Shown here in pieces: positions 37,755 to 60,473 of a stretch of DNA of 64,000 nucleotides. The DNA is from a virus. Under the pieces are notes generated by a model. That model saw only the letters and a list, made by a program, of their open reading frames with translations, was not told the origin of the DNA and made no database searches. The position numbers and the translations under genes were made by a program. Position 1 is the first letter of the stretch. Each line of letters starts with the position of its first letter. The stretch spans positions 32,001 through 96,000 of IMG/VR virus record IMGVR_UViG_3300028596_000009, one strand, 5' to 3'.

Positions 37755-38108
37755 ATGGAATTCGTCAGTGCGACCGCCGTGGCGGCGTACCTGGGCGTCA
37801 CAGCCGGATCCGTGCACAACTGGTGCACGAACCCTCCGGAAGGGTTCATCGAGCCCGACGCCGTCACCAGAGGGATCGACGGCAAGGTGGTCGCCCGCTC
37901 CTGGTTCCCCGAGAAGCTCCCGCAGATGCGCGAGTGGATGGAGAACCGGCTCAAGCTGGAGACCGAGATCGACAAGGCCAACCACTGGTCCCTGGTCAAC
38001 GAGGGCCTGAAGTCCAAGCGGGAGACCAAGCGCCGCAAGAAGCTCGGCATCTCCGATGGCCAGACGGCCATAGGAGTGGAGAAGTTCACCGGTGACGGTG
38101 GGCAGTGA
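37755..38108 (+). CDS. HTH (excisionase/MerR-like) DNA-binding protein
   Basis: SATAVAAYLGVTAGSVHNW. Confidence 0.65.
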   Translation: MEFVSATAVAAYLGVTAGSVHNWCTNPPEGFIEPDAVTRGIDGKVVARSWFPEKLPQMREWMENRLKLETEIDKANHWSLVNEGLKSKRETKRRKKLGISDGQTAIGVEKFTGDGGQ

Positions 38109-42836: not shown

Positions 42837-43553
42837 ATGAACGGCAAGGCGCACGCAGCGATAGGCGCCACCTCGCCGCTGGTCCTCATCACGGCCGGAG
42901 CGGACCTCGGTCAGCTTCTGGTCCTGGCGGGGATCGCGGCGGGGGCCGCCCTCGGGCCGGACATCGACCATCCGAACGCCACCGCCACGCGGGCTCTCGG
43001 AACCGCTGTCCACAAGTCGGTCCACACCCTGTCGAAAACAGTCCGCTGGGCAACTTCGACGAGGGCGGACCGGGCGGCGGCGGCACAGTGGGAATCGCTC
43101 GGAAGGGACGCCGATCACAGGGCTCTGACGCACACCGGTGTTTCGGCTCTGGTGGTCGGGACGGCCGGATTCTTCCTGTCACTTATCCCGTTCGGTTCGG
43201 TGGCTGTGGTAGCCCTGGGCGGGTGGCTGGTGGGGAACCTGGTGAAGCGGACCACGGCGCCGGTCGTGTGCATCGCGCTCACTGGACTGGCCGTCATGTG
43301 CAGCGTCCCGGCGTGGATGGCTGCTTCGGCTGTCGCGCTGGGCTGGCTGTCCCACGTCCTCGCGGACGCCTGCACGATGGGCGGGGTGCCGCTGATGTGG
43401 CCGATGCGGCGGGACGGGAAGCGGTGGAAGCACACGCGCTTCCTCGGAAAGATGCTTCGCTCGGGTGCTTCCTCCGAGTGGGCCGTGGCGATGGGATTCA
43501 TCGTCGTCCTGTCCTTCCCGTTCACAGTAGTGATGCTCACGCCCTACCGCTGA
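42837..43553 (+). CDS. Membrane-bound metal-dependent hydrolase (YdjM-like)
   Basis: H...PDIDHP...HRALTH...SHVLADACT..GVP with TM segments. Confidence 0.85.
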   Translation: MNGKAHAAIGATSPLVLITAGADLGQLLVLAGIAAGAALGPDIDHPNATATRALGTAVHKSVHTLSKTVRWATSTRADRAAAAQWESLGRDADHRALTHTGVSALVVGTAGFFLSLIPFGSVAVVALGGWLVGNLVKRTTAPVVCIALTGLAVMCSVPAWMAASAVALGWLSHVLADACTMGGVPLMWPMRRDGKRWKHTRFLGKMLRSGASSEWAVAMGFIVVLSFPFTVVMLTPYR

Positions 43554-45178
43554 CCTGCGGAAACATCGAGGAAGCACCGAGGAAGCAGTTCAAGGAAACA
43601 CGGAAACGGAGAAGGAAACATGACGTCGTACGCGACGGTTCTGTACGGGTTCAAGATGGAGAACGACGGGTTCTTGACCGACGGCATCCACGATAAGTGC
43701 GAGCTGGGCATGGAGCTGAAGCAGGCGGTGGCCTTCCACCTCCGTGAGGAGCTGGGAACCATCATCGACGAGAAGCCCGTGAAGGTCGCCCGCTTCGACG
43801 ACCACGTGGAGCTGCTCCGCCAGGAGACCGGCCTGTGGGTCGAGCCGTGGGGCGAGAAGACGTGCTTCATCACCATGATCAAGATGTGCCACGTCGGCGG
43901 CGAGTTCGAGCCCAAGCGCATCCCGCTGAACACCCCTGGCCCCGGAACCCTCCACGAACTCCTGGGGGCGGCTTCGAAGGCGGGAATCGACATCGACGTT
44001 CAGGAGCCCGCCTGGTTCCTCCTGTCCGGCAGCGAGTGAAGGAGACGGCGATGAGCGGAAATGCGAGGGCGAAGCTGTTCTGCGGCACCGAGCTGGACTT
44101 CTGCACGACCGACGAGATGGACGAGGACTACGAGAGGGACTACTCGGACGTGGGCGTGTACGCCCGGCACATCGCAAGGTCGATGGACGAAGGTCCGCTC
44201 GCCGACAACTTCAACGAGGAGACCCTCGCGGAGCAGTACGGCCTGCGGGTTCTGATGGCCGACAACAGCCTCTTCCTGGCGATCGAGGACAGCGTGACCG
44301 AGGTCAGCGGCAACGGCATCCACGACGTGAACTCTCTGGCCTACTCGCGGCGGTACGAGGAGCTGCTGGGATTCGCCCTGCTGAGGATCGACAACTCGGA
44401 GACCCAGCCGAAGTGGCTGCTGGCCACCGACTGCAACTGACCCACGGAAAGGGGACAGACATGAAGGCGAAGTTCTTCTACGGAGTGAAGCTCGACCACA
44501 CCAACTACCCGAGCGGCGTCACGAAGCTGCTGGAGAAGTGGGGCAACCCCGAGGAGGCCCTGTCGATCCACCTGCTGAAGGAGGGCGGGTACACGATCGA
44601 CAACGAGTACGACGCGGAGGAGGAGCTGGCCAGGAAGACCGCGATCCGCGTGCTCGACCTCGGGGACTTCGGCACCTACCTGGCGCTGGAGAAGGCGATC
44701 ACGTCCCTCGACTCGCACGGAGTCACCAAGGCCGACATGGCGCCGACGGAGCTGGGAGAGCAGCTTCGGATGGAGGTCTATGCCAAGCGGCTCGGCACCA
44801 ACGCCCTCGGAAACACCGGCTGGAGCCTGTGGGGCGACCACGTGTGAAGTGCTTCCTGCCGCTTCCGTGGTGCTTCCTCCTCATCGGGGAAGCGCTGCGG
44901 TGGACAACAGGAAACACCTGCTGACCTGCGGAAACACAAGGAAGCAAGGGAGGAAGCATGGAGGAACAGGAAGACTGTGCCGCTCTCGCGGAAGACTGGT
45001 TCCCCGAAGCCAGCGAGGAAGCACTGGAACTCGCGACCGAGACTCTCACCCACATCATGAACAACCCGTTCATGCTGGTCGACGACGCACAGATCGAACT
45101 TCTGATGAGGCTGGCCACCTTCGCCGACGCGGGCGAGAAGCTCGCCATGGAACTCATCAAGAGCCGGAAGGAAGCACC

Positions 45179-45400
45179 GTGAACCGCACTGAGATCGAGA
45201 ACCTCTTCACCTACCACCCGCCGTTCGGCAGCCAGCCCGACCGCTACATCGAGATCCGTCAGATGGCCTTGGAGTTCGCCCTCCGCCTGGAGGAACTGTG
45301 CCCGCCGTCCGACGAGCGCAAGGAAGCGATCCGGCACATCGACTACGCGGTGATGCGGGCCAACGCCTCCATCGCCCGGCACGAGACGGAGGAGCAGTGA
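45179..45400 (+). CDS. Acb2/Tad1-like helical-hairpin anti-defence sponge
   Basis: IENLFTYHPP...Y..IR...CPPSDERKEAIRHIDYAVMRANASIAR. Confidence 0.6.
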   Translation: MNRTEIENLFTYHPPFGSQPDRYIEIRQMALEFALRLEELCPPSDERKEAIRHIDYAVMRANASIARHETEEQ

Positions 45401-45932
45401 GCGACCGCAAGTACGACACCTGGCACAACGTGTACGTCGGGGACCGGGGCTGGGCGATCGGAGGCCACCGGCCGGACTGCCCCACCCAGCCGGGCAACCC
45501 GGCGTCGTACAACTGCCTGACCTACGCCAACGTGCGGGACTACGCCCGGAACTACCCGGAACTCCAGGTCATCACCGACGGCGCCTACCGGATCCGCTAC
45601 TGGCACAGCGACGAGGAGCCCGGCGGCGGCTTCGAGATCGAGAGGATGGGCTGAGTCATGCGCAGCTACGACGAGTGGCACGACCTGTATATCGACGGGG
45701 ACGGCGAGTGGAGCCTGACCCACCCCATCGCCAAGTGCCCGTCCTACCCCGACGGCCCTGAGCCTGGCGACACCGCCTACGGATGCGGCACGGAGGACGT
45801 CATGGGCGTCCACGGCACCGAGTACCCGGAGCTGGCCAAGCTCAAGGAGGGCCACTACCGGATCCGCTACTGGGGCGAGACGTCTCCGGTCGACGGGGAG
45901 TTCGAGGACGGCTTCGACGTGGAGGTGGCCGG

Positions 45933-46355
45933 GTGAAGCCGCTCGTCATCCTGGTCACCGGCTCCCGGGACTATACCGACCGGGCCTTCGTGTACGCGGC
46001 GCTCGGGCGGGCCCGCGAGTTCTACAGCGACCGCCGGATCATCGTCCGTCATGGGCTGGCCAAGGGTGCGGACACTCTGGCCAGCGACTGGGTGCAGTCC
46101 ATCGGGAACCACCGGCTGGTCGACGAGGATCCGCACGACCCGAACGACCACGGTCCGTGGCCTGCCGCCGGGATGATCCGAAACGCGCACATGATCCGGC
46201 TGGAACCGCGTCCCGACTGGTGCCTCGGCTTCGTCAACCGGTGCCGCAGGCCGCAGTGCAAGAACCGGCAGCTCCACGGATCGCATGGCGCTGAGGGGTG
46301 CCTGGAGATGGCCGAGAGGGCGCAGATCCCCTTCAAGGCATGGAGAACGTTCTGA
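45933..46355 (+). CDS. SLOG/YspA-like (DUF2493) nucleotide-binding protein
   Basis: ILVTGSRDY, HGLAKGAD, AGMIRNAHM, SHGA. Confidence 0.8.
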   Translation: MKPLVILVTGSRDYTDRAFVYAALGRAREFYSDRRIIVRHGLAKGADTLASDWVQSIGNHRLVDEDPHDPNDHGPWPAAGMIRNAHMIRLEPRPDWCLGFVNRCRRPQCKNRQLHGSHGAEGCLEMAERAQIPFKAWRTF

Positions 46356-46381
46356 TCTGAGCCTTCTGGAAGGAGAAGGGC

Positions 46382-47257
46382 ATGGAGCAGCTTGAGATTT
46401 TCTTCGAGGACAACGAGATTCTGAAGCAGTACGAGGCGATACCGGCGCCGCTTCAGCGCAAGCTGGAGACTCACTTCGCCACCCTCGTGGCGTGCGTGTC
46501 GATGAGGAAGACGCCGTTCCCCGCGCACCGCAACCGTGGTGTTTCCATCACGGTGGAGAACCCCAGGACCACGGTCGTCGTCCATGCGACGCGGGTGCAG
46601 GGCGGCGTGGAGATACTCGGTGTCATCGCCCGGGTCCGCACCCCGGACCAGCAGGAGGACTACCGGGCCGAGCGGGGCGTGGACTGCCCGTTCTGCGGCG
46701 CCGGGAAGGGCAACGCCTGCGTGGGGACCGACGGGCATGTCCTGACCTACGTCGGCACACGGAAAGACAAGCGACGTACCCACGCTGCCCGCCGCGAGCT
46801 GCACCAGACCGGCTCCGTGAAGAGGTTCAGCGGGGTCCAGAAGTCCATCCCGTTCATGACGGCTTCGGGGATCCGTAACGAGATGGCCGACGGCCGGGAC
46901 TCCGACTGGGCTGAGGTGTTTGACCAGTACAGGAACATGTACGACTCCGTCGAGATGGCCGACGGGCTGGTGGACGGCGCGATGCGGGTGATCGAGAAGC
47001 ATCACCCGGACCATCTGTGGTCGCCGTCGAAGTTCTGGAACCTGATGTGCGAGCACATCAGCGGCCCGCACGAGAATCCCGATCGGATGATCGTGACGAT
47101 GATGGGCAGGAGCCTGAGGCTCGGCATCATCACGCAGAAGCAGCACGACTACTACCTGCGCATGGGGGTCAGGGGCTACGCCGCGTTCGTCGGCCTGGAC
47201 TTCGCCCCGCACCCGCTCGGCGGCTTCGTCGCCGTCCGCAGCCTGAAGGGAATCTGA
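46382..47257 (+). CDS. Multidomain protein with central Zn finger
   Basis: CPFCGAGKGNAC...THAAR. Confidence 0.6.
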   Translation: MEQLEIFFEDNEILKQYEAIPAPLQRKLETHFATLVACVSMRKTPFPAHRNRGVSITVENPRTTVVVHATRVQGGVEILGVIARVRTPDQQEDYRAERGVDCPFCGAGKGNACVGTDGHVLTYVGTRKDKRRTHAARRELHQTGSVKRFSGVQKSIPFMTASGIRNEMADGRDSDWAEVFDQYRNMYDSVEMADGLVDGAMRVIEKHHPDHLWSPSKFWNLMCEHISGPHENPDRMIVTMMGRSLRLGIITQKQHDYYLRMGVRGYAAFVGLDFAPHPLGGFVAVRSLKGI

Positions 47258-48917
47258 TGGGGCTGAACATCGACGGCGTGACGAAGTGGAGCTACGGCGC
47301 CTTCAACACCTGGCGGGCACAGATCGCCCATCACGAGGGGTTCACGTTCTCCGAGATGGAAGGGTGCGGCGGCGTGCGCCCCTGGAGCGAGGTCGACTCC
47401 GTCCTGCTGCCCCTGCTGGACCACCCGGACGACGACGGTGAGCTGACCGCTGCGGAGTGCGCGCAGATGCACACCTACCTCCGTGAGGTGGTCGACAAGC
47501 TGTGGCCTTCCTGGCAGTACGACGGGCTGGGGGAACGGCAGCGGGGCCTGGAGCTGGCGGACGCGATGAAGGAGGCCGCCGAGGGCGGCTGGAGTCTGGA
47601 GTTCCAGTGAGAACTGCCCTCGTGACCGATGGCCTGTCGTCGAAGGATCTGATCGACCACCTGCGTGCAGCCGTGGGGGCTGCACAGGATGAGAGGAGGG
47701 GAACGATGAGCACCGAGATGATGGTCTACGTGGCGGTGCGCTGCCCGCAGGCGCCGACGGCGGACCAGTTGTCCGCGCTGACTCGGAACATCAACGGGGA
47801 GATACGCCACAGTGAGCACACCGGGCTGCTGGAGATGTACTGGCGTGTGCCGTCCGAGCGGCTTCTGGGCGTCGCGTCCACGGTGCCGAAGCTGGTGTCG
47901 CAGACGCTGACGACGGCCTTCAGGGACGAGCCGGAGGTCGTCTCCCTGAACGTCATTTCCACAGCGAAGCAGTAGGGAAGCAAGGAAGCGGGTGCTTCCG
48001 GGGAAACAGGAAGTACCCACAGGAAGCGGGGAAACCCGCAGATCAGGAGGCATGTGATGGCGACCGGACCCGAGCACTACGCCGAGGCCGAGAAGCTGCT
48101 GGAAGCGGAGAAGACCCTCTCCGCGAAGAACACCGACCTGCGCAACCTGACGGTCAACAAGGCCCTCGCGCATGCGGTGCTGGCCCTGGCCGCCGCGTCG
48201 GCGCCGACCTCGACGACCCAGGCGGAGAAGTGGTCGCGGGTGATCCGGTGAGCGCACTGGCCAAGGGGACCCGGGCGCTGAGCCATGTGTTCGCCAAGGC
48301 CCCTGCCGGTACCTACGTGCTGTTCGCCGTGGACCGGGACGACTCCGGCTCCGGACGGGGAGCCCTGGATGAGATATCCCTGGCCCGGGACGGCAGGAAC
48401 ATCCTGGTCAGGAACGGCTTCAGGGGCGTCGCCGAGACCGTGGGCAAGTCCATGGACAGCCTGAACGGCGGCTACCTGGTGCTGACCGGCGGCGACTTCA
48501 CCTCCGAGAACAACCCGCGTACGTCCTGGGTCTGGCAGGTGCTGGCGGGGTCTCTCCTCCCGCTTTCCGGCGACGCGGCCTGGGACGTGCTCCAGCACTA
48601 CCCGACGGCGCAGGGGTACGTGTGGCTGTCGAAGGAGACCAGCTACGAGGACGCATGGGCTACGACATAGACCCGGACCGTCATCTCCTCGCACTGGCCT
48701 GCGGATTGGCCACGGGGATGGTGTGCGTCGTTGCCTGGATCGTGGTGGAACTCCTGCGTTCTTAACCATTGCGAAGAAGCGTGCAAACGCCCGGATGGAA
48801 GCGGCCCGCCTCTGCATTTCCGGTCGAGGAAGCAGGGTTTCCTGGCAGGAAGCGGCGTGGGAAACTGATTCCATCCGGGCTTTTGCTTGGAAGTAACTCT
48901 CTGGAAAGGAGGAACTG

Positions 48918-49442
48918 GTGAAGAAAATGAAAGCAAGGCTGGGCTGGATTCCCAGTGGCGCCAAGGGGTCCACCGAGGAACTGTTGAAGTGGATCGACAG
49001 CGGCCAGGACAAGGAACTGTCCAGGAAGAAGCTGACCTTCTGTGCGTGCGTTGCTGGCGGTGCCGTGCTGCTCGTCGTGCAGGTTCCCGTGGTCGGCCCC
49101 ACCGCGATTGTGCTGGGCGCGCTGGCGGTATTCGCCTGGTTCGACAAGACCCCGCAGGAGGAGATGAGGATGCGGTTCTCGGACTTCAGCACGGAGTCCT
49201 TCGTCATCGGCGACGAGCAGGTGCCGGGCATGGAGGTGCTCTGGCGCTACATCCAGGCCCATCCCGGCAAGACCCCGGCCGAGCTGGCCGAGTACCTGTC
49301 GCAGGCGCCCGGTTCCCCCACGGTCAGCCCGCGCCTGATGGCCGGTGTGATGACCGAGCTGGGCATCCCGATCCCGCGCCAGGAGCAGCCCCAGGCCCCC
49401 GTCGAGAAGCCCGCCGAGGAGCCGGAGCCGGTCAAGGAGTAG
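48918..49442 (+). CDS. Membrane protein
   Basis: Two TM segments followed by a helical cytoplasmic domain. Confidence 0.6.
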   Translation: MKKMKARLGWIPSGAKGSTEELLKWIDSGQDKELSRKKLTFCACVAGGAVLLVVQVPVVGPTAIVLGALAVFAWFDKTPQEEMRMRFSDFSTESFVIGDEQVPGMEVLWRYIQAHPGKTPAELAEYLSQAPGSPTVSPRLMAGVMTELGIPIPRQEQPQAPVEKPAEEPEPVKE

Positions 49443-50857
49443 CTTCCGGCGCCTCTCTGTCCAATAGATCTGTCTATCCACTCCCCTCCTCTCGGCGGGT
49501 GTGCCCCCTCAAAACAAGATGCGCTGGTCAGCGCTGTGACGTGGGACGAGACCCGGGAAAAGCCGAGAAGTGGGGGACAGGATGGACAGATCTAGTGGGT
49601 CTGTTTAGTGGACAGACTTGCGGTAGCCTTTTCCGCATGGATGAGGAGACGAAATCTGAGATCCGGCGCCGTAGTTTCGCGGCCTGGTACCGCTTCTACG
49701 AAGGAACCGAGGGCGGGCCGGTCGACTCGGTCGAGGTGGTCGAGGTGAACGACAAGTACTACGCGGCCGTCCGGCATGCCGGAAAGCTGCGGGCGGTCTT
49801 CCGGGTCCGCAACGACCTGAAGCTGAAGCGCCTGTTCAAGTGGCCCAAGGTGATCGTGTGACTGTCACATGGAGCTTGTTGTGCCGGTCTGATCCCGTGA
49901 GGTCGGCATATAGGTTCCCGTTAAGAGCGCTGGGGAGTTCGTGATGGACGAGGACATCGATTACGGGGACGAAGATGACCTGACGGGTGATTCGGAGGAG
50001 GCCGTTGCGCGGCCTCTCACTGAGACGGAACTCGCTGAGGCCGAAGAGAGGAACCTGGTACGCAGGAAAGTCGAGATAGAGGCCATAAGAGGCTTCCCGT
50101 GGGCCTCCTGCCCCGTCTGGCAGGAAGACATCCCGCCGGAAGACCGTGATCCTCCGTGGCGAATTCCAGGACAGCGTGCTTCCGGGTACTTCCGGATCGA
50201 TGAGATCGAGCGCTTCCTGCTTCTCGGGGACCACCCGCTTAACGAAAGCAACGAGTAGAAGGAAGAAGCAGTGGGTCTGGGGAATGCAGTTCTTCGTATG
50301 TTCGGCTGGAACGTCAAGGTCGGTGCTTCCGGCGATGTGGAGCAGGTCGCGGACGGCCTTTCGGGGAGCGTGGTCGTGCGGCCCAACGGCAGAGGCGGCA
50401 CGAAGGTCGAGGTGAAGTCGGACTCGGGCAAGTGGGTGCTGGACCACTTCGAGTGCGAGAGGTGCGGCTTCGACCGCTACGGCACGTCTTGCACGCGCAC
50501 GAAGGACCGGGGTTACCGGGTGACCTTCACCTGCACGGAGTGCGGGCACGTCGAGCAGTACTTCCAGCGGGAGGTCTGACGGGGCAAAACACGACAGAGC
50601 GTCAGGTAGGTCCGGGCGCACGACACGCCCCACCGCACGACTGAGAAGATCCGCTTCTGAGAATTTTCATCGGCTCGTTTCCACCGCTTCCCCCGGGTGC
50701 TTCCATCTCTGACCTGGGGGTTTCGTGTTTCCCAGGAAGTGCTTCCAGCCATGAGGCACCCTGTTTCCACCACGTGCTTCCTGATGGTCCGTTGACAAGG
50801 AAGCGCCGTCGCTTAGATGATGGCCAAGTCCAAACGGACTGGAAACGGAGACAAGAC

Positions 50858-51940
50858 ATGATGAAGTTCTGGAAGTCGGGTGAGGCGGCGAAGACGCCCG
50901 CCAAGCCCACGACGCGCAAGAAGCAGCAGCCCGAGGTGGAAGCGAGGATGAACGTGGGAGCGTTCCTCCTGACCCCACTCGGCGGCTTCCTGTCCGGTTG
51001 CTCGCTGCTGTGGACCGCCTTCTCGGTCACCGATCTCCTGGGCATCGGGCCGATGGGTCTGACCGTCGCGCTGACGCTCGACCTGATCTGGCTCGTCATC
51101 ATGTACGCCACGCACAAGGAGATCCCGTTCTATGGAAGCCTGACCGCCACTCAGGCCATCGGATGGATCTTCCTCGTCGTCGTCGTCGTGGCCCTCGCCT
51201 GGCACGGCGTCAGCCTGGAGGGCAAGGAGATCCTCGGGTACACGGTGAGCAGGAACGCTTCGCACGCCATGGCCATCATCGGTCCGATCCTCCCGCTGGG
51301 TTCGAAGATCACCTGGGTTCTCGTGAGCGCCGCGTACAAGAAGGCGGAGCAAGAGGCGAACAACCCGGAGGGCTACACCGAGGAGCAGCTCATCGCTCTG
51401 GAGGAGATGGAGCGCGAGTCGAAGTTCGAGGAGGCCGAAGCGGAGAAGGCCCTGGAGGCCAAGCGCCGCAAGCACAAGCTGGAGCTGGAGGAGATCCGGA
51501 TGGGCGGCGAGAAGACCCGCGCCCGCAACGACGTCAACTTCGAGCTGGAGCGGGCGCGCATCGAGCAGGCCACCAAGCTCCGCAACGAGATGCCGGTGGA
51601 CCTGGTCCGCATCATCCAGGGCGAGGTCGAGCAGCCGGTCCTCCCGGCGCAGGCGCAGGCCCCGGCCCTCATGCCGGTCCGTACGATTCCGGCGGCGAAG
51701 GAGAGGGAGCGGACCGAGGTCACCGTCTCCATCACCGACCTGAACGAGGACCAGCGCAAGGCCCGGACGCTCGTGGTTGAGTACCTCCTGCTCAAGCAGA
51801 AGGACCCGACCTACAGCCAGCGGAAGTTCGCCGCCGACAAGGGCATCTCCAGCGGCTGGCTCAACAAGCTGATCACCCGGTACGGCCCGTCCATCGAGAA
51901 CGACGAACTGAGCGACGGCGACGAGGCCATCACCGGCTGA
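50858..51940 (+). CDS. Spd/DUF2637-like membrane + coiled-coil + C-terminal HTH protein
   Basis: Four TM helices, coiled coil, SQRKFAADKGISSGWLNKL HTH. Confidence 0.6.
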   Translation: MMKFWKSGEAAKTPAKPTTRKKQQPEVEARMNVGAFLLTPLGGFLSGCSLLWTAFSVTDLLGIGPMGLTVALTLDLIWLVIMYATHKEIPFYGSLTATQAIGWIFLVVVVVALAWHGVSLEGKEILGYTVSRNASHAMAIIGPILPLGSKITWVLVSAAYKKAEQEANNPEGYTEEQLIALEEMERESKFEEAEAEKALEAKRRKHKLELEEIRMGGEKTRARNDVNFELERARIEQATKLRNEMPVDLVRIIQGEVEQPVLPAQAQAPALMPVRTIPAAKERERTEVTVSITDLNEDQRKARTLVVEYLLLKQKDPTYSQRKFAADKGISSGWLNKLITRYGPSIENDELSDGDEAITG

Positions 51941-52028
51941 CCTTCGCGCGGTACCACCACGGGCCCCTGCGGGGCGTCACTCGGCACACCGCAGGGGCCC
52001 TTCCATGTCCAAGGAGAGGAAGAGAACG

Positions 52029-53093
52029 ATGAGCGACAACTGGCTCGAAGACATCATGCGGGGCAACGCGGCCACCCCCGAGGCGGCGTTTGAGAAGAAG
52101 GCCACGGCGACGGTTCCCAGGCCGCGTCCGTCCGGGATGCCGACCCACCCGAACGAGTGGGGCTCCGGCGGCAAGGTGAACCTGCTTCCGGGTGAGGAGG
52201 AAGCGCCTGCTTCCCCTGCTTCCGATGCCGCTTCCTCGGTGTCGGCCAACACCCCCGAAGAGGACGGTGAGCTGCGGAAGCGCAAGGAAGCGAAGAAGAA
52301 GCGCCCGCTTCCCCCGATGCCGAAGCAGCCCCCGACCGTCCACGAGAACATCGCCTCCGGCGAGCCGGAGAAGGAAGCGGAAGGGGAAGCGGGAAGCGCC
52401 GGGGAAGCGGACGGCGAGGAAGCACAGGAAGCGGTCGACGAGGAGACGAAGGGCCGCATCCGGTCCGCTCTCGCCAAGGCCCGTACGGTGACCGGTTCGG
52501 CGAAGGAGAAGGTCTCCGAGAAGACCAAGCCGGTCAAGGACAAGGTCGTCAATGAGATCGACCCGAAGAAGGCGCAGAAGTGGTCGCTGCTGTGGGCCGG
52601 TGCCGCTTCGTGGGTGATCTCGCCCGGTACGCTCGCTGCCCTCTACGACCGGGCGGTGATGCTGTTCGGCTCGTGGACGGAGAGCTTCCCGAGGGCCGAG
52701 TTCCTCAACTCCGGCGGCATGCCGCATGAGTGGGATCTGCTCCAGGGTCCCGCGTGGTGGGTTCGCAACACCGTCCAGGACGCGTTCGAGGCCGGTGTGA
52801 CGAGCGACCTCCTTGCCGCGCTTGTCGTGGGCGTGGTTCCGACGGTCGCGCTCATGCGCGTGAACCACCGGATCGTCAGGTTCTTCCTGGTGGTGGGAGT
52901 TGCGTACTTCGTCGGCTTCCAGTGGTTCCCGCAGTGGTGGGAGGTCTACATGGCGACCTTGGCCGCCTGTGCGTACTATGGCTGGACGATGGCCAACCGG
53001 ATTCAGTCCGCGTTTCTGGCCTGTATGTTCCGTGTTCCCGTGGCGGCGATTGTCTCGGGATCCATCCTCTACTCTCCGGGGGCGATTTTCTGA
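52029..53093 (+). CDS. Membrane protein with disordered N-terminus
   Basis: Pro/Glu-rich N-half, multi-TM C-half. Confidence 0.65.
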   Translation: MSDNWLEDIMRGNAATPEAAFEKKATATVPRPRPSGMPTHPNEWGSGGKVNLLPGEEEAPASPASDAASSVSANTPEEDGELRKRKEAKKKRPLPPMPKQPPTVHENIASGEPEKEAEGEAGSAGEADGEEAQEAVDEETKGRIRSALAKARTVTGSAKEKVSEKTKPVKDKVVNEIDPKKAQKWSLLWAGAASWVISPGTLAALYDRAVMLFGSWTESFPRAEFLNSGGMPHEWDLLQGPAWWVRNTVQDAFEAGVTSDLLAALVVGVVPTVALMRVNHRIVRFFLVVGVAYFVGFQWFPQWWEVYMATLAACAYYGWTMANRIQSAFLACMFRVPVAAIVSGSILYSPGAIF

Positions 53094-53635
53094 TGGCGCT
53101 GGATTCGATCGTGGCTGCGGCACCGGTCGTGCAGATGCAGTCCAACCCGAACAGTTGGTTCGGAAACGCTGGTTCCGCCTTCGTCGGCGTCGCGTTCCTG
53201 CTGTCCGCTTTCATGCTGGCCAGGTCCGACGAGGCGAAGGGGATCAAGCCCAAGGGTCCGTGGGGACCGTGGCTCGCGAAGAAGCTCGACCACGTCAAGT
53301 GGGACTGGAAGTCCCTGATGTCGTGTCTGTGGGGCTTCTTCGGTACCACCGCCCTGCTGGGTTCCGTCGGTGTCCTCGGCAACCTGTCCCGCTGGTTCCA
53401 GGGACTCTTCTCCTGGATCAAGGACATCGAGTTCATCGCCAACGTCGGCATGGCCGGTGTGTGCCTCTTCATCCTGCTCATGGTGTGGAGGCGGCAGAAC
53501 GACAACATCAGCGACGTGCGCTGGGGCTGCGTCATGGGCCTCGCGTTCCCGCTCGGCGGCGGCATCTGGCTTCAGGCATCCCTCGCCGTCGGCAACATGC
53601 TGGTCAACATCATGAACGGGATCCCCAGGGCATGA
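53093..53635 (+). CDS. Multi-pass membrane protein
   Basis: Several hydrophobic helices, coupled to neighbours. Confidence 0.65.
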   Translation: MALDSIVAAAPVVQMQSNPNSWFGNAGSAFVGVAFLLSAFMLARSDEAKGIKPKGPWGPWLAKKLDHVKWDWKSLMSCLWGFFGTTALLGSVGVLGNLSRWFQGLFSWIKDIEFIANVGMAGVCLFILLMVWRRQNDNISDVRWGCVMGLAFPLGGGIWLQASLAVGNMLVNIMNGIPRA

Positions 53636-54129
53636 ACATGAGGGCGGGTGGCTACTTCGTCCTTGCCTTCTTAACTCTCGGCGCCGGTCAGGCCGTGTTC
53701 GGATTCTTCGACGAAGTCTCCGGCGCCGAGGGTGGGGCAGGGATCACAGTCTCCAGTGGAGTTGGGGGAGCAGCCTCCGACAAGCAACTGAACGCGTGGA
53801 TCAATGACGCGCTCAAGGTCATGAAGCAGGAAGGGATCCCTGGAAGCTTCAACGGAATCAAGCGCAACGTCATTCGTGAATCGGGCGGTAATCCGACCAT
53901 CGTGAATGATTGGGACATCAACGCCAAGAACGGAACACCTTCAAAGGGTCTCCTTCAGGTAATCCAGCCAACCTTCAACGCCTATAAGCTTCCGCAGTCG
54001 GCATACGACCGGGCCGGAGTCAAGGCAAACGCGAACAGCTTGACTGACCCCATTGCCAACATTGTGACCGCGTGCAACTACGCAGCGGCTCGGTACGGCT
54101 CCATGGACAACGTCAACGGTCCCTACTGA
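53632..54129 (+). CDS. Secreted lytic transglycosylase (SLT domain)
   Basis: RESGGNP, NDWDINAKNGTPSKGLLQVIQPTF, NYAAARYG. Confidence 0.9.
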   Translation: MNMRAGGYFVLAFLTLGAGQAVFGFFDEVSGAEGGAGITVSSGVGGAASDKQLNAWINDALKVMKQEGIPGSFNGIKRNVIRESGGNPTIVNDWDINAKNGTPSKGLLQVIQPTFNAYKLPQSAYDRAGVKANANSLTDPIANIVTACNYAAARYGSMDNVNGPY

Positions 54130-58331: not shown

Positions 58332-59979
58332 CATGGACAAGGACATGGCCAAGTACGTCCTGAAGGACTGGACTGTTCTGGTCGGCTCCGTCGTGACCAG
58401 CGTCGAGCTGTTGTGCTTCGTCATGGTCTGCAAGGTAGGAGGCATGGCGGAAATCTCCTACGTCGGCCTCCTGCTGGTCGCCAGCTTCGCAGCGTGTGGC
58501 TACCTCGCCGCTGTCGCCTCGACCGAGTATGAGGAGGGCCGGTGAGCAGGGAGATGGCTCGTTACGTGGCTGGCATGATCGGCGGCTCGGCGTGGTTCCT
58601 GTGGAACCTGCCGTACATCGACTCCTTCAACTTCATGTGTCTGATGTGCGCGGTCATCTGCGGATGGGGCGTACTCAAGACGCTGAAGAAGGGACGTCGG
58701 TGAACCTGAAGAAGGCTGACGAGGAGGCCGCCAAGGGCGTCGCGGTGCGCGACATCATCGCGGACCACCGGGCCACCGTCGAGAACCTGAGGATCCTCTG
58801 GTACGCCATGCTCCTCCTGTGGGCGGCGAGCGTCGTCTTCGAATGGGCGCCCGGCCGGACCGGAGGATGCATCGGACTCGTCGTCACCTCCATCGTGGAG
58901 ATCGTGTACAGGCGGAAGAAGTTCAAGTAGTCCCTTGGAAAGGGGAAACGGTGAAGATACGCAAGCCTTCGGGTGATGCCCTGCTCGTGATGGGCGGAGG
59001 GTCCCTGATGACCTACCTCGCGATGCTTCTGACCGGCAGTGAGACCTGGATGGCGGACGTCATGATCGTGGCGGCGACCGTGTTCATCCTGTCCGGCCTG
59101 TACGTCGGCTCCGGCAAGTCCGATGGCCAGACCGACGCATGACGAAGTAGCGGAGATCGCGCAACTGCGCAGAGAAGGTGACCTCGGCTCGTACATCCGC
59201 AGCCTGGCTGGCCTCAAGGTCAAAGCCAGGCCGGAGTACCAGGCAATCCAGTGCCCGTTGTGCGGCGCCCCTCCCAACCAGTCCTGCACCGGACTGCGCG
59301 GGAAGCGCCTGGGTGCCGGAGTGCATGAGGCCCGGATCGGCGCGATCTCTCCGCAGGAGGTGACGTCGATGGGTGGAGCATGGCCCGTCGGTCTTCCCAT
59401 GGAAAGGGAGAATGACGAAGTGAACCTGAACAACGAGCAGGCTGTCAGAGCTGCCGCCCTGCAAGCGGCGGCCGTCACGGTGGCGTCCATCAACGGCGAC
59501 GAGAACGACGTGATACTGCTCGCCGAGGAGTACGCCGCGTACATCCGGGGCGGCCCGGCCAGTTTCCAGCGCAACCCGGACGAGGAGTTCTCGAAGCCGT
59601 CCGAGGCGTGGGCCGAGCCGGACCCGGCGTCCATGGCGCAGGAGTTCGCGACCAGCGGCTACAACGCCAGGACCAAGGAGGAGTTCGGCAAGGTCTGGAA
59701 GGCCGCGAGCGACGCCGGGGTCATGGGGACGGTGGTGATCCTCAGCGACGGTGAGCAGCAGGAGCTGGGGGCGTACCTGACGGTGATGGCGGCCAAGTTC
59801 AAGGATCCGAACCAGGTCTCTGACCCGAACCGGTCTTCGGAGCGGGAGAGGGCCCGGCAGACGATCCGGTCCGACATGGGCCTGTAGGTCCATCTGGCTG
59901 AACCCCTCGCCGGATGTGCTCTGACGAGGGGTTTTCCTGTACCCCGCCACGACTTAATCTGTACTGTCAGGTACACTCA

Positions 59980-60038: not shown

Positions 60039-60473
60039 GTGAACACACGGGAAAACGTCAGCGAGTCCGTCCGGGCCCTGATGGGACTGCGTGGGATGAA
60101 CAGCATGTCTGAGCTGGCAGAACTGCTCGACGTGCACCCCGAGTACATGCCCCGCAAGGTCCGGGAAGGGCGGTGGACCCTGGAAGACCTCGACGTACTG
60201 AGCGAGATCTTCGAAGTCACCCCCGCCGCCCTGGTGTCCGGCGAGAACCTGGCCCAGCGACCCACCTTCCCCGGCAAGCAGCGTCTCTTCGAGGTCATTT
60301 TCACCCTCGAAGGCGGAGCAAAGCTGGTCTGCCTGGAGGAGGCGGGAAGCAGCGGAGACGCCATCAAGTCCATCACCGGCGTCTGGGCCCCGCCCGAGGA
60401 GGTCACCAACATCAGCACCAAGGAGAAGAGGTACTTCCAGGTGCACATCCCCTCCCTGGAAGGCCAGCGGTGA
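60039..60473 (+). CDS. XRE/Cro-like HTH protein
   Basis: MSELAELLDV...GRWTLEDLDVLSEIFEVTPAALV. Confidence 0.75.
   Translation: MNTRENVSESVRALMGLRGMNSMSELAELLDVHPEYMPRKVREGRWTLEDLDVLSEIFEVTPAALVSGENLAQRPTFPGKQRLFEVIFTLEGGAKLVCLEEAGSSGDAIKSITGVWAPPEEVTNISTKEKRYFQVHIPSLEGQR

Follow-up and report, generated by a model that had tools for sequence, protein, structure and literature searches.

Dispersed, dialect-bearing GGAARC arrays in a large actinophage and their putative reader, a membrane-anchored helix-turn-helix protein

Several promoters of the plasmid pSM19035 carry 4-10 copies of a word of 6-7 bp, some direct and some inverted, and a single protein (omega) reads these sites, which serve both as operators and as a DNA-handling site (PMC9499535; PMC2441792). 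SpdB2, an oligomeric Streptomyces plasmid protein with four transmembrane (TM) helices, has been reported to bind double-stranded DNA (dsDNA), and homologues of it have been noted on actinophages; for the SpdB2 protein of pSVH1, pore formation, peptidoglycan binding and a role in intramycelial spread are known from experiments (PMC4447253). The membrane protein p16.7 anchors the DNA of phage phi29 and binds single-stranded DNA as well as the terminal protein (PMC4974454). Regulation in large phages of the Streptomyces type is almost unknown. Here we analyze a stretch of 64,000 nucleotides (the window) that represents bases 32001-96000 of the IMG/VR record IMGVR_UViG_3300028596_000009, a virus sequence of 166,823 bp with 64.7% GC and a CheckV completeness of 88%; the gene-family searches reported below extend over this ~88%-complete record. 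Coordinates refer to the window unless they are marked as genome positions. We found that arrays of the hexamer GGAARC (GYTTCC in reverse orientation) are non-random, conserved among relatives, selected at the level of the nucleotides, written in one word variant (dialect) per genome, and linked across distant phages to a gene at 50858..51940 on the + strand, here called gene 50858. Its product is a 360-amino-acid (aa) membrane protein with a predicted helix-turn-helix (HTH) domain and is our candidate for the reader of the arrays. Most genes of the array region belong to no family, and the arrays offer a concrete, testable regulon of seven loci that share one word.

In its working, the omega system of pSM19035 comes closest to what we observed, since the phage arrays, too, are built from a short word that recurs, forward and reverse, at several promoters on a single replicon. 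The omega heptads are contiguous, however, and at least four gapless copies are needed, whereas the phage words are spaced 6-13 bp from start to start; short-repeat arrays, a feature of type I partition-like systems, are present in the phage, but with variable spacing. Furthermore, omega is a small soluble ribbon-helix-helix (RHH) protein that works with ParA, while no ParA was found in the phage, whose candidate reader is an HTH protein of the membrane. The Streptomyces Spd/Tra plasmids (PMC4170104; PMC4447253) resemble the phage locus in that binding sites lie within or beside the gene of the binding protein and in that their oligomeric Spd proteins with four TM helices touch DNA; the translational coupling of the phage operon and the nearby cell-wall enzyme add to this likeness. 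Yet sps consists of one 12-bp palindrome, and the reader of clt, which is composed of 8-bp TRS repeats, is an FtsK-like pump that was not found in the phage, while the phage words are 6-7 bp long, occur in both orientations and at seven loci, and do not form direct repeats of the TRS type at or after the 3' end of a traB gene. In addition, dsDNA binding by SpdB2 was reported to be non-specific, the order of its domains differs from that of the 50858 product, and seven arrays dispersed over operon heads are unlike the Spd/Tra sites. The p16.7 protein of phi29 is likewise an integral membrane protein of a phage with a DNA-binding C-terminal part, a part that in the 50858 product corresponds to the predicted HTH; it possesses, however, one TM helix instead of four, and no sequence relation between the two proteins is known. 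Like the 50858 product, p16.7 also contains a coiled coil. To our knowledge, p16.7 has not been reported to read a specific word, and no arrays are known from phi29. On the tests run, the 50858 protein cannot be filed under the omega, the Spd/Tra or the p16.7 family.

The genome contains 301 copies of GGAARC/GYTTCC, 66 of which fall within the 9,051 bp between positions 43400 and 52450; this amounts to 7.3 copies per kb, as compared with 1.5 per kb in the remainder of the 166.8-kb genome. When we compared these data with 40 genomes simulated from a Markov model of order 4, the nine clusters with at least five copies per 130 bp present in the phage genome had no counterpart in any of the simulations, and the peak count of eight copies per 130 bp contrasted with a simulated mean of 3.1 and a maximum of 4. 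An earlier reading of the window from its letters alone (the sequence-only reading) had drawn attention to five clusters, counted by hand, and had noticed no comparable ones elsewhere in the window. Our recount reproduced all of them, with six copies at 43559-43619, eight at 44851-44957, six at 47976-48035, eight at 50677-50804 and 14 at 52184-52432, as well as their occurrence in both orientations, and the simulations bear out the enrichment. Not on its list were four copies at 43417-43472, five at 48797-48865 and a further array of 9-12 copies positioned outside the window, upstream of the large-terminase gene terL (genome 150905-151117). The base that follows the hexamer is a purine in 85% of the clustered copies, and copies in the same orientation follow one another at widely varying start-to-start distances (6-13 bp), of which 10 and 12 are the modes.

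Comparison with related phages gave the most informative result, the dialect. The product of gene 50858 has eight relatives in a set of 5.8 billion proteins, and the relatives' metagenomic contigs are fully syntenic with the present phage over ~20 kb (L003, from a 149-kb contig; L004, from one of 118 kb; L005-L007; L015; L016). Their proteins are only 50-70% identical, yet arrays are found in the same five intergenic gaps (IG1-IG5) and within the same gene; over six aligned genomes, IG5, the control region of gene 50858, has a column identity of 82%, well above that of the coding regions. The word itself differs between genomes. GGAAGC prevails over GGAAAC in the present phage (38 versus 14) and in L015 (16 versus 1), whereas L003 carries 34 GGAAAC plus six GGCAAC, L004 carries 23 GGAAAC plus eight GGCAAC, and L005 uses GGAAAC; in each case one dialect extends over all arrays of the genome. 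A megablast search of the array region against phage and plasmid collections gave no match. Scanning viral contigs for GGAAAC in three spaced copies led to 119 unrelated loci, and tblastn connected none of these with the present phage; nothing was found when viral contigs were scanned with the 360-aa protein.

One array lies within a gene. Array 6 (52184-52432) is written into gene 52029..53093 (+ strand), in the part that encodes the low-complexity N-terminal third of a 354-aa protein; it has 14 copies in both orientations and a box-like TGAGCTGCGG at 52268-52277. The sequence-only reading had remarked on unusual codons here, and indeed GAA accounts for nine of the 17 Glu codons in the array part of the gene, as compared with 16% genome-wide. 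This in-gene array matches the dialect of its genome, and the encoded peptide changes with it: AS/EA in the present phage and L015, VS/ET in L003, L005 and the distant homologue L139, and ET/AT in L004. The dialect hence costs residues, Ala-Ser becoming Val-Ser and Glu-Ala becoming Glu-Thr. That the in-gene array tracks the dialect at the expense of the peptide argues for selection on the nucleotides, and provides a strong example of a DNA signal that overrides protein sequence within a gene. Taken together with the dialect shared by all arrays of a genome, such selection points to one trans-acting reader whose preference has drifted between lineages; the differences among the relatives amount to a natural specificity-swap experiment.

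Which protein might this reader be? On either side, gene 50858 is bordered by the two densest arrays, which have 11 and 14 copies. As the sequence-only reading had it, this gene encodes a TM-coiled-coil-HTH protein: a basic N-terminus is followed by four predicted TM helices (residues ~27-168), a 70-residue coiled coil (175-244), a disordered linker and the C-terminal HTH (residues ~297-347, corresponding to nucleotides 51746-51898). In the predicted structure, the C-terminal 55 residues form a three-helix bundle with a helix-turn-recognition-helix arrangement, as in tri-helical DNA-binding domains of the sigma-70 region 4/LuxR-like kind (helices 297-315, 321-328 and 332-347; predicted local distance difference test scores of 84-88). 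When the model of the HTH alone was used in a Foldseek search, no row reached E<=0.001; the top rows were nearly all HTH DNA-binding domains, but at E 0.3 or worse, and the weak neighbours include region 4 of an extracytoplasmic function (ECF) sigma factor bound to a GGAAC -35 element, which we regard as a hint only. The best match of the HTH in a profile search against the PDB was a phage immunity repressor at an E value of only 0.04, and a fold search with the whole protein yielded generic helical bundles only. Precomputed matches of the protein family to SpdB_N (PF27080) are mostly marked 'weak' or 'faint', those of the homologues L139 and L143 being unmarked.

The link between gene and word reaches beyond the syntenic relatives. 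The nearest cultured relatives of the phage belong to a group of Streptomyces phages, 184-200 kb in size, that comprises Satis, JustBecause and Frankenweenie (aa identity ~41% for the helicase and ~57% for the terminase), and in these BK/BM phages a small-database tblastn search detected orthologues of gene 50858 that are ~24% identical (Satis gp105, JustBecause gp103 and Frankenweenie gp114), along with orthologues of the next two genes. All three orthologues have the TM/coiled-coil/HTH build and the promoter type of gene 50858, and each is preceded by six or seven GGAAG/CTTCC words in 230 bp, where chance would give about one (P 4e-4 to 5e-5). Within a 50-kb stretch of Satis, no other 120 bp are as densely clustered with GGAAG/CTTCC as those at this spot. 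Tight GGAAAC arrays are absent from the entire Satis genome, including the region upstream of its terL gene, and the spread of the arrays to other loci is therefore specific to the present clade. A profile search of 1.84 billion representatives recovered only ~60 clusters of this protein family. Among five further homologues inspected, L139 displays the full GGAAAC design, in-gene array included, whereas a more distant one (L142) has another word, GTATC/GATAC, of which the 2-kb contig contains seven copies, every one of them in the 250 bp upstream of the gene (L142:397-587).

Under a codon-bias gene call, the only gaps with at least five copies are IG1-IG5 and the gap before terL; intergenic gaps are few in the array region, and the arrays occupy five of them. 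Including the array within gene 52029-53093, seven arrays are thus present, and five of these are positioned at operon heads, where they abut Shine-Dalgarno (SD) sequences or start codons or overlap a promoter spacer. This placement is operator-like, not centromere- or clt-like. In the common layout, reverse copies are distal and forward copies proximal, the final forward copy touching the ATG in IG1 and IG2. An 11-bp box, CTGACCTG[CG]GG, accompanies the words; it occurs as a single copy in IG1, IG2, IG5 and the terL gap (genome 150982-150992), as the above-mentioned variant TGAGCTGCGG in array 6, and always on the + strand of the genome. The terL-gap array retains the genome-strand layout of the other arrays although terL is transcribed from the opposite strand, and both array and box are kept in two contigs with an 80%-identical terL.

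Array 5 (IG5; 50655..50857, + strand) comprises seven reverse copies at 50677-50781 with the box CTGACCTGGGG at 50709-50719, followed by a sigma-70-like promoter (TTGACA, 18 bp, GATGAT; 50792-50821) that holds one forward copy in its spacer (50799-50804), and by another forward copy beside the SD sequence (50841-50846). An invariant 15-mer, TTCTGAGAATTTTCA (50655-50669), and the likewise invariant AGGCACCCT (50750-50758) are shared with six or seven relatives, the distant L139 among them, and are probably sites for another factor. Gene 50858 heads a translationally coupled operon that continues with gene 52029-53093 and ends with two genes at 53093..54129 (+ strand), one for a 180-aa membrane protein with a weak match to a holin family and one for a 165-aa SLT lytic transglycosylase; this gene pair is syntenic in L003-L007, L015 and L139. 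Array 1 (IG1; 43550..43619, + strand) contains the box CTGACCTGCGG at 43550-43560 and six GGAARC copies, all forward and at intervals of 8-13 bp, up to a final one that abuts the ATG of gene 43620-44039, a layout also present in L003, L004 and L005; its distal part (43417..43472) consists of two forward and two reverse GGAAGC within the 3' end of a YdjM-like gene (42837-43553). In array 2 (IG2; 44851..44957, + strand), three reverse copies precede five forward copies, with the box CTGACCTGCGG at 44921-44931, and the final copy directly adjoins the start codon (ATG) of gene 44958, which opens an operon that holds an Acb2/Tad1-like gene (45179-45400). The 73-aa product of the latter gene contains an Acb2/Tad1 hairpin domain (PF24729; E 6e-14) and, judged by this match, is a candidate sponge for cyclic-nucleotide defence signals. 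Array 3 (IG3; 47976..48035, + strand), in the gap between a stop codon at 47975 and gene 48057-48251, has five forward copies, one reverse copy and one GGAAGT. Array 4 (IG4; 48783..48886, + strand) takes the form of a conserved 104-nucleotide hairpin with four or five copies (48797-48865) followed by a T-run, upstream of gene 48927-49442. Ahead of this hairpin, a conserved hydrophobic micro-ORF of ~30 aa that is part of no gene call ends at 48766.

We tentatively favour the interpretation that GGAARC(R) represents the putative dsDNA sites of one phage-encoded protein, with the C-terminal HTH of the membrane-bound coiled-coil protein encoded at 50858-51940 as its most likely reader. Duplex DNA is probably the main form in which the arrays are bound. 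We infer three things here, namely DNA as the level of reading, the 50858 protein as the reader, and the effect of binding. In the proposed mechanism, each HTH would bind a single hexamer as a monomer-like unit, which would account for the mixed orientations and the loose spacing of the copies, and an oligomer held together by the coiled coil would gain affinity (avidity) from many weak sites in a row. Its own promoter has sites upstream of the TTGACA...GATGAT core, within it and shortly behind it, and there the protein would be autoregulatory. In the case of the remaining five or six arrays (at three operon heads, in the hairpin gap, in the interior of the next gene and in the terL gap), binding might repress or time the operons and might also hold these stretches of phage DNA at the membrane. 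Autoregulation combined with membrane tethering by the HTH protein is thus our leading, though unproven, model. The sequence-only reading had likewise suggested a binding array that tethers the element to the membrane. That part of its proposal remains a reasonable model, because the densest arrays flank the gene and distant orthologues carry GGAAG clusters, and the arrays are non-random, conserved and linked to gene 50858; the plasmid-like element that it had imagined is not supported.

Several observations speak against this assignment. Searches of Pfam and NCBIfam gave no family for the 50858 protein or for its residues 285-360. Three of seven other homologue lineages lack a clear upstream array (there is only a vestige in L140 and nothing in L141 and L143), and no residue of the recognition helix tracks the GGAAGC/GGAAAC dialect; it is because of these two findings that we advance the model with reserve. 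Co-occurrence of gene and word is weak evidence by itself, as the phyletic pattern is common to many other phage genes. The box CTGACCTG[CG]GG is a second conserved element and may be the true nucleation site for another protein, and part of the signal may reside in RNA, given that the IG2-IG4 hairpins are stable and that of IG4 covaries. Serine versus alanine or glycine at helix position 2 was considered as a dialect determinant and rejected, since L139 combines serine with the GGAAAC dialect. Upstream of the L140 homologue, where GGAA words are nearly absent, the box is present twice.

A more far-reaching version of the leading model, which we consider speculative and rather unlikely in its entirety, would have the membrane-anchored oligomeric HTH protein read a private hexamer in a family of large actinophages, with the seven arrays pinning its own operon, the anti-defence and small-protein operons and the terminase gene to the membrane. 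Gene timing would in this way be coupled to DNA placement and perhaps, with the co-encoded membrane proteins and lytic transglycosylase, to passage through the cross-walls of hyphae, while word and reader would co-evolve (GGAAG, GGAAAC, GGAAGC, GTATC). If the membrane HTH protein is indeed the reader, phi29 p16.7 and the plasmid Spd proteins would have a counterpart in it that is sequence-specific, and phage gene control, DNA localisation and possibly mycelial spread would be linked.

The main rival explanation holds that the arrays are operators of a soluble transcription factor, of phage or host origin, that defines a temporal class of operons (the membrane/SLT operon, the Acb2-like operon and terL), gene 50858 being one of the regulated genes and nothing else. 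We regard this as possible, but not as the likely solution. The five arrays at operon heads, which abut SD sequences or ATG codons or sit in a promoter spacer, speak for such a regulator, and the peak of same-orientation spacing at 9-12 bp is as found for head-to-tail binders. Candidates are available as well: a weakly Cro-like protein (37755-38108), an HTH_26 protein (60039-60473), XRE proteins elsewhere and two Phage_zn_bind_8 proteins (46382-47257 and 59123-59887). Against a host factor, it is hard to explain why closely syntenic phages should differ in dialect. With any soluble regulator, moreover, one has to account for a coding-region array that has no operon head to control, and for the fact that the region upstream of the membrane HTH gene is the only locus that keeps an array across the distant BK/BM phages.

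Alternatively, the words might act in RNA, where GYUUCC could pair with GGAARC to form terminator-like hairpins and to sequester SD sequences and start codons in read-through transcripts, in the way in which the ribosome-binding site of T4 lysozyme is masked in early mRNA. Three arrays fold much beyond their shuffled counterparts (z of -3.7 for the + strand of IG2, -3.6 for IG3 and -4.05 for IG4). Within IG2, the copy close to the SD sequence and AUG has the first of the reverse copies as its pairing partner, at a mean pairing probability of 0.76 for the full length and 0.46 for the truncated form. The 104-nucleotide IG4 hairpin (-62.7 kcal/mol) contains 11 pairs with compensatory changes in four sequences, is stabler on the + strand and is followed by a T-run in three of four relatives; it is probably a real terminator-like structure that is partly built of words. 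However, IG1 and IG5 possess no structure beyond that of shuffles (z of +1.1 and +0.2), the six copies of IG1 are all forward and have no partner nearby, and the reverse copies of IG5 lie upstream of the promoter. The non-coding (-) strand of IG2 folds better still (z of -4.5), the pairing partners vary among the relatives, and the wobble-tolerant U form is not preferred in the reverse copies. A search against Rfam at E<=1 gave just two rows at chance level and no family for the IG4 element. The in-gene array is distant from any start codon, which eliminates a translational operator as the sole explanation and, in conjunction with the conserved strand layout of the terL array, argues against a purely translational or transcript-bound role. 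The lack of structure in IG1 and IG5, the strand preference of IG2, the shifting partners, the position of the IG5 copies ahead of the promoter and that of the in-gene array are our reasons for taking most arrays to act on DNA, and we judge an RNA-level role of the words to be improbable as the main explanation; RNA structure would be a secondary or locally restricted effect.

The sequence-only reading had described the field as a candidate centromere or transfer locus, in other words a centromere or clt-like site by which a plasmid-like element is segregated or spreads through hyphae. Short-repeat arrays in two orientations at several promoters do resemble the omega/parS arrangement of pSM19035 (PMC9499535); sites within or beside the gene of the binder recall SpdA2/sps and TraB/clt (PMC4170104; PMC4447253), and the 50858 product's N-terminal domain has the precomputed SpdB_N matches, in an operon that ends with an SLT gene. 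But the words are neither contiguous heptads nor 8-bp TRS repeats, most arrays are operator-like, and the genome is that of a tailed phage. Its ~307 genes (from a simple codon-bias gene call) are small and mostly co-directional; 10 tRNAs and genes for a Ro/TROVE protein, an SNF2 helicase and a UvrD helicase are found in the window, and the genome also codes for an endolysin of the amidase type and for a large terminase into which intein sequence is inserted. Across the whole 166.8-kb record, no CbiA/ParA-type ATPase (PF01656) was detected at E<=0.01; ParB_N (PF02195), the family by which centromere-binding proteins were sought, FtsK/TraB (PF01580), tyrosine integrases and serine recombinases or resolvases were not found either. 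The annotation of Satis includes an FtsK-like gene. WhiB was not detected in the phage genome, and DUF2637 gave no match. The terminase, tRNAs and endolysin, the phage relatives and the failure to detect integrase, resolvase, ParA, ParB or FtsK/TraB genes in this record identify the element as a large tailed actinophage of soil, related to the lytic-looking BK cluster, and not as a plasmid. We consequently rate the centromere/transfer interpretation as very unlikely.

The weakest of the alternatives, replication-origin or pac-like packaging sites, draws on the array directly upstream of terL and on the CTGACCTG box that keeps to one genome strand in all arrays (the pac site of phage P1 is flanked by multi-copy hexamers), but we give it hardly any credence: seven dispersed sites are unlike pac, six of the seven arrays are 65-75 kb away from terL, neither an initiator gene nor a small terminase gene is adjacent, and the homologous terL genes of BK phages lack an array. 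Promoters of an ECF sigma factor, with GGAAAC as the -35 element, were rejected, since no sigma-70 region 2 or region 4 gene was detected in the phage genome, a conserved -10 element at a fixed distance is lacking, and the tandem copies reach the ATG. A CTGACC hexamer was likewise discarded as the -35 element of the downstream gene, as it is just 29-37 nucleotides away from the ATG in IG2.

Some further features of the genome deserve mention. The terL product comprises 1142 aa (L001:2471-5900, - strand; genome ~147471-150900, outside the window) and carries two intein-type insertions, which directly follow the Walker A GTGK in one case and come behind the Walker B DEA in the other; LAGLIDADG_3 is matched as well. 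The Satis terL aligns to it in two pieces that amount to 69% coverage. The UvrD-like helicase of the present phage (60810-62336; 508 aa) has no intein, while its counterparts in two relatives (L004:18420-20759 and L005:18443-20842; 779-799 aa) contain one, with Intein_splicing matches. In the gap before gene 49637, a 26-nucleotide inverted repeat (49461-49598) is 85% complementary, its arms being 86 nucleotides apart. GATAAG/CTTATC and TGATAA are strongly enriched in intergenic DNA genome-wide (z of ~19 and ~12, respectively), a signal separate from the GGAARC arrays.

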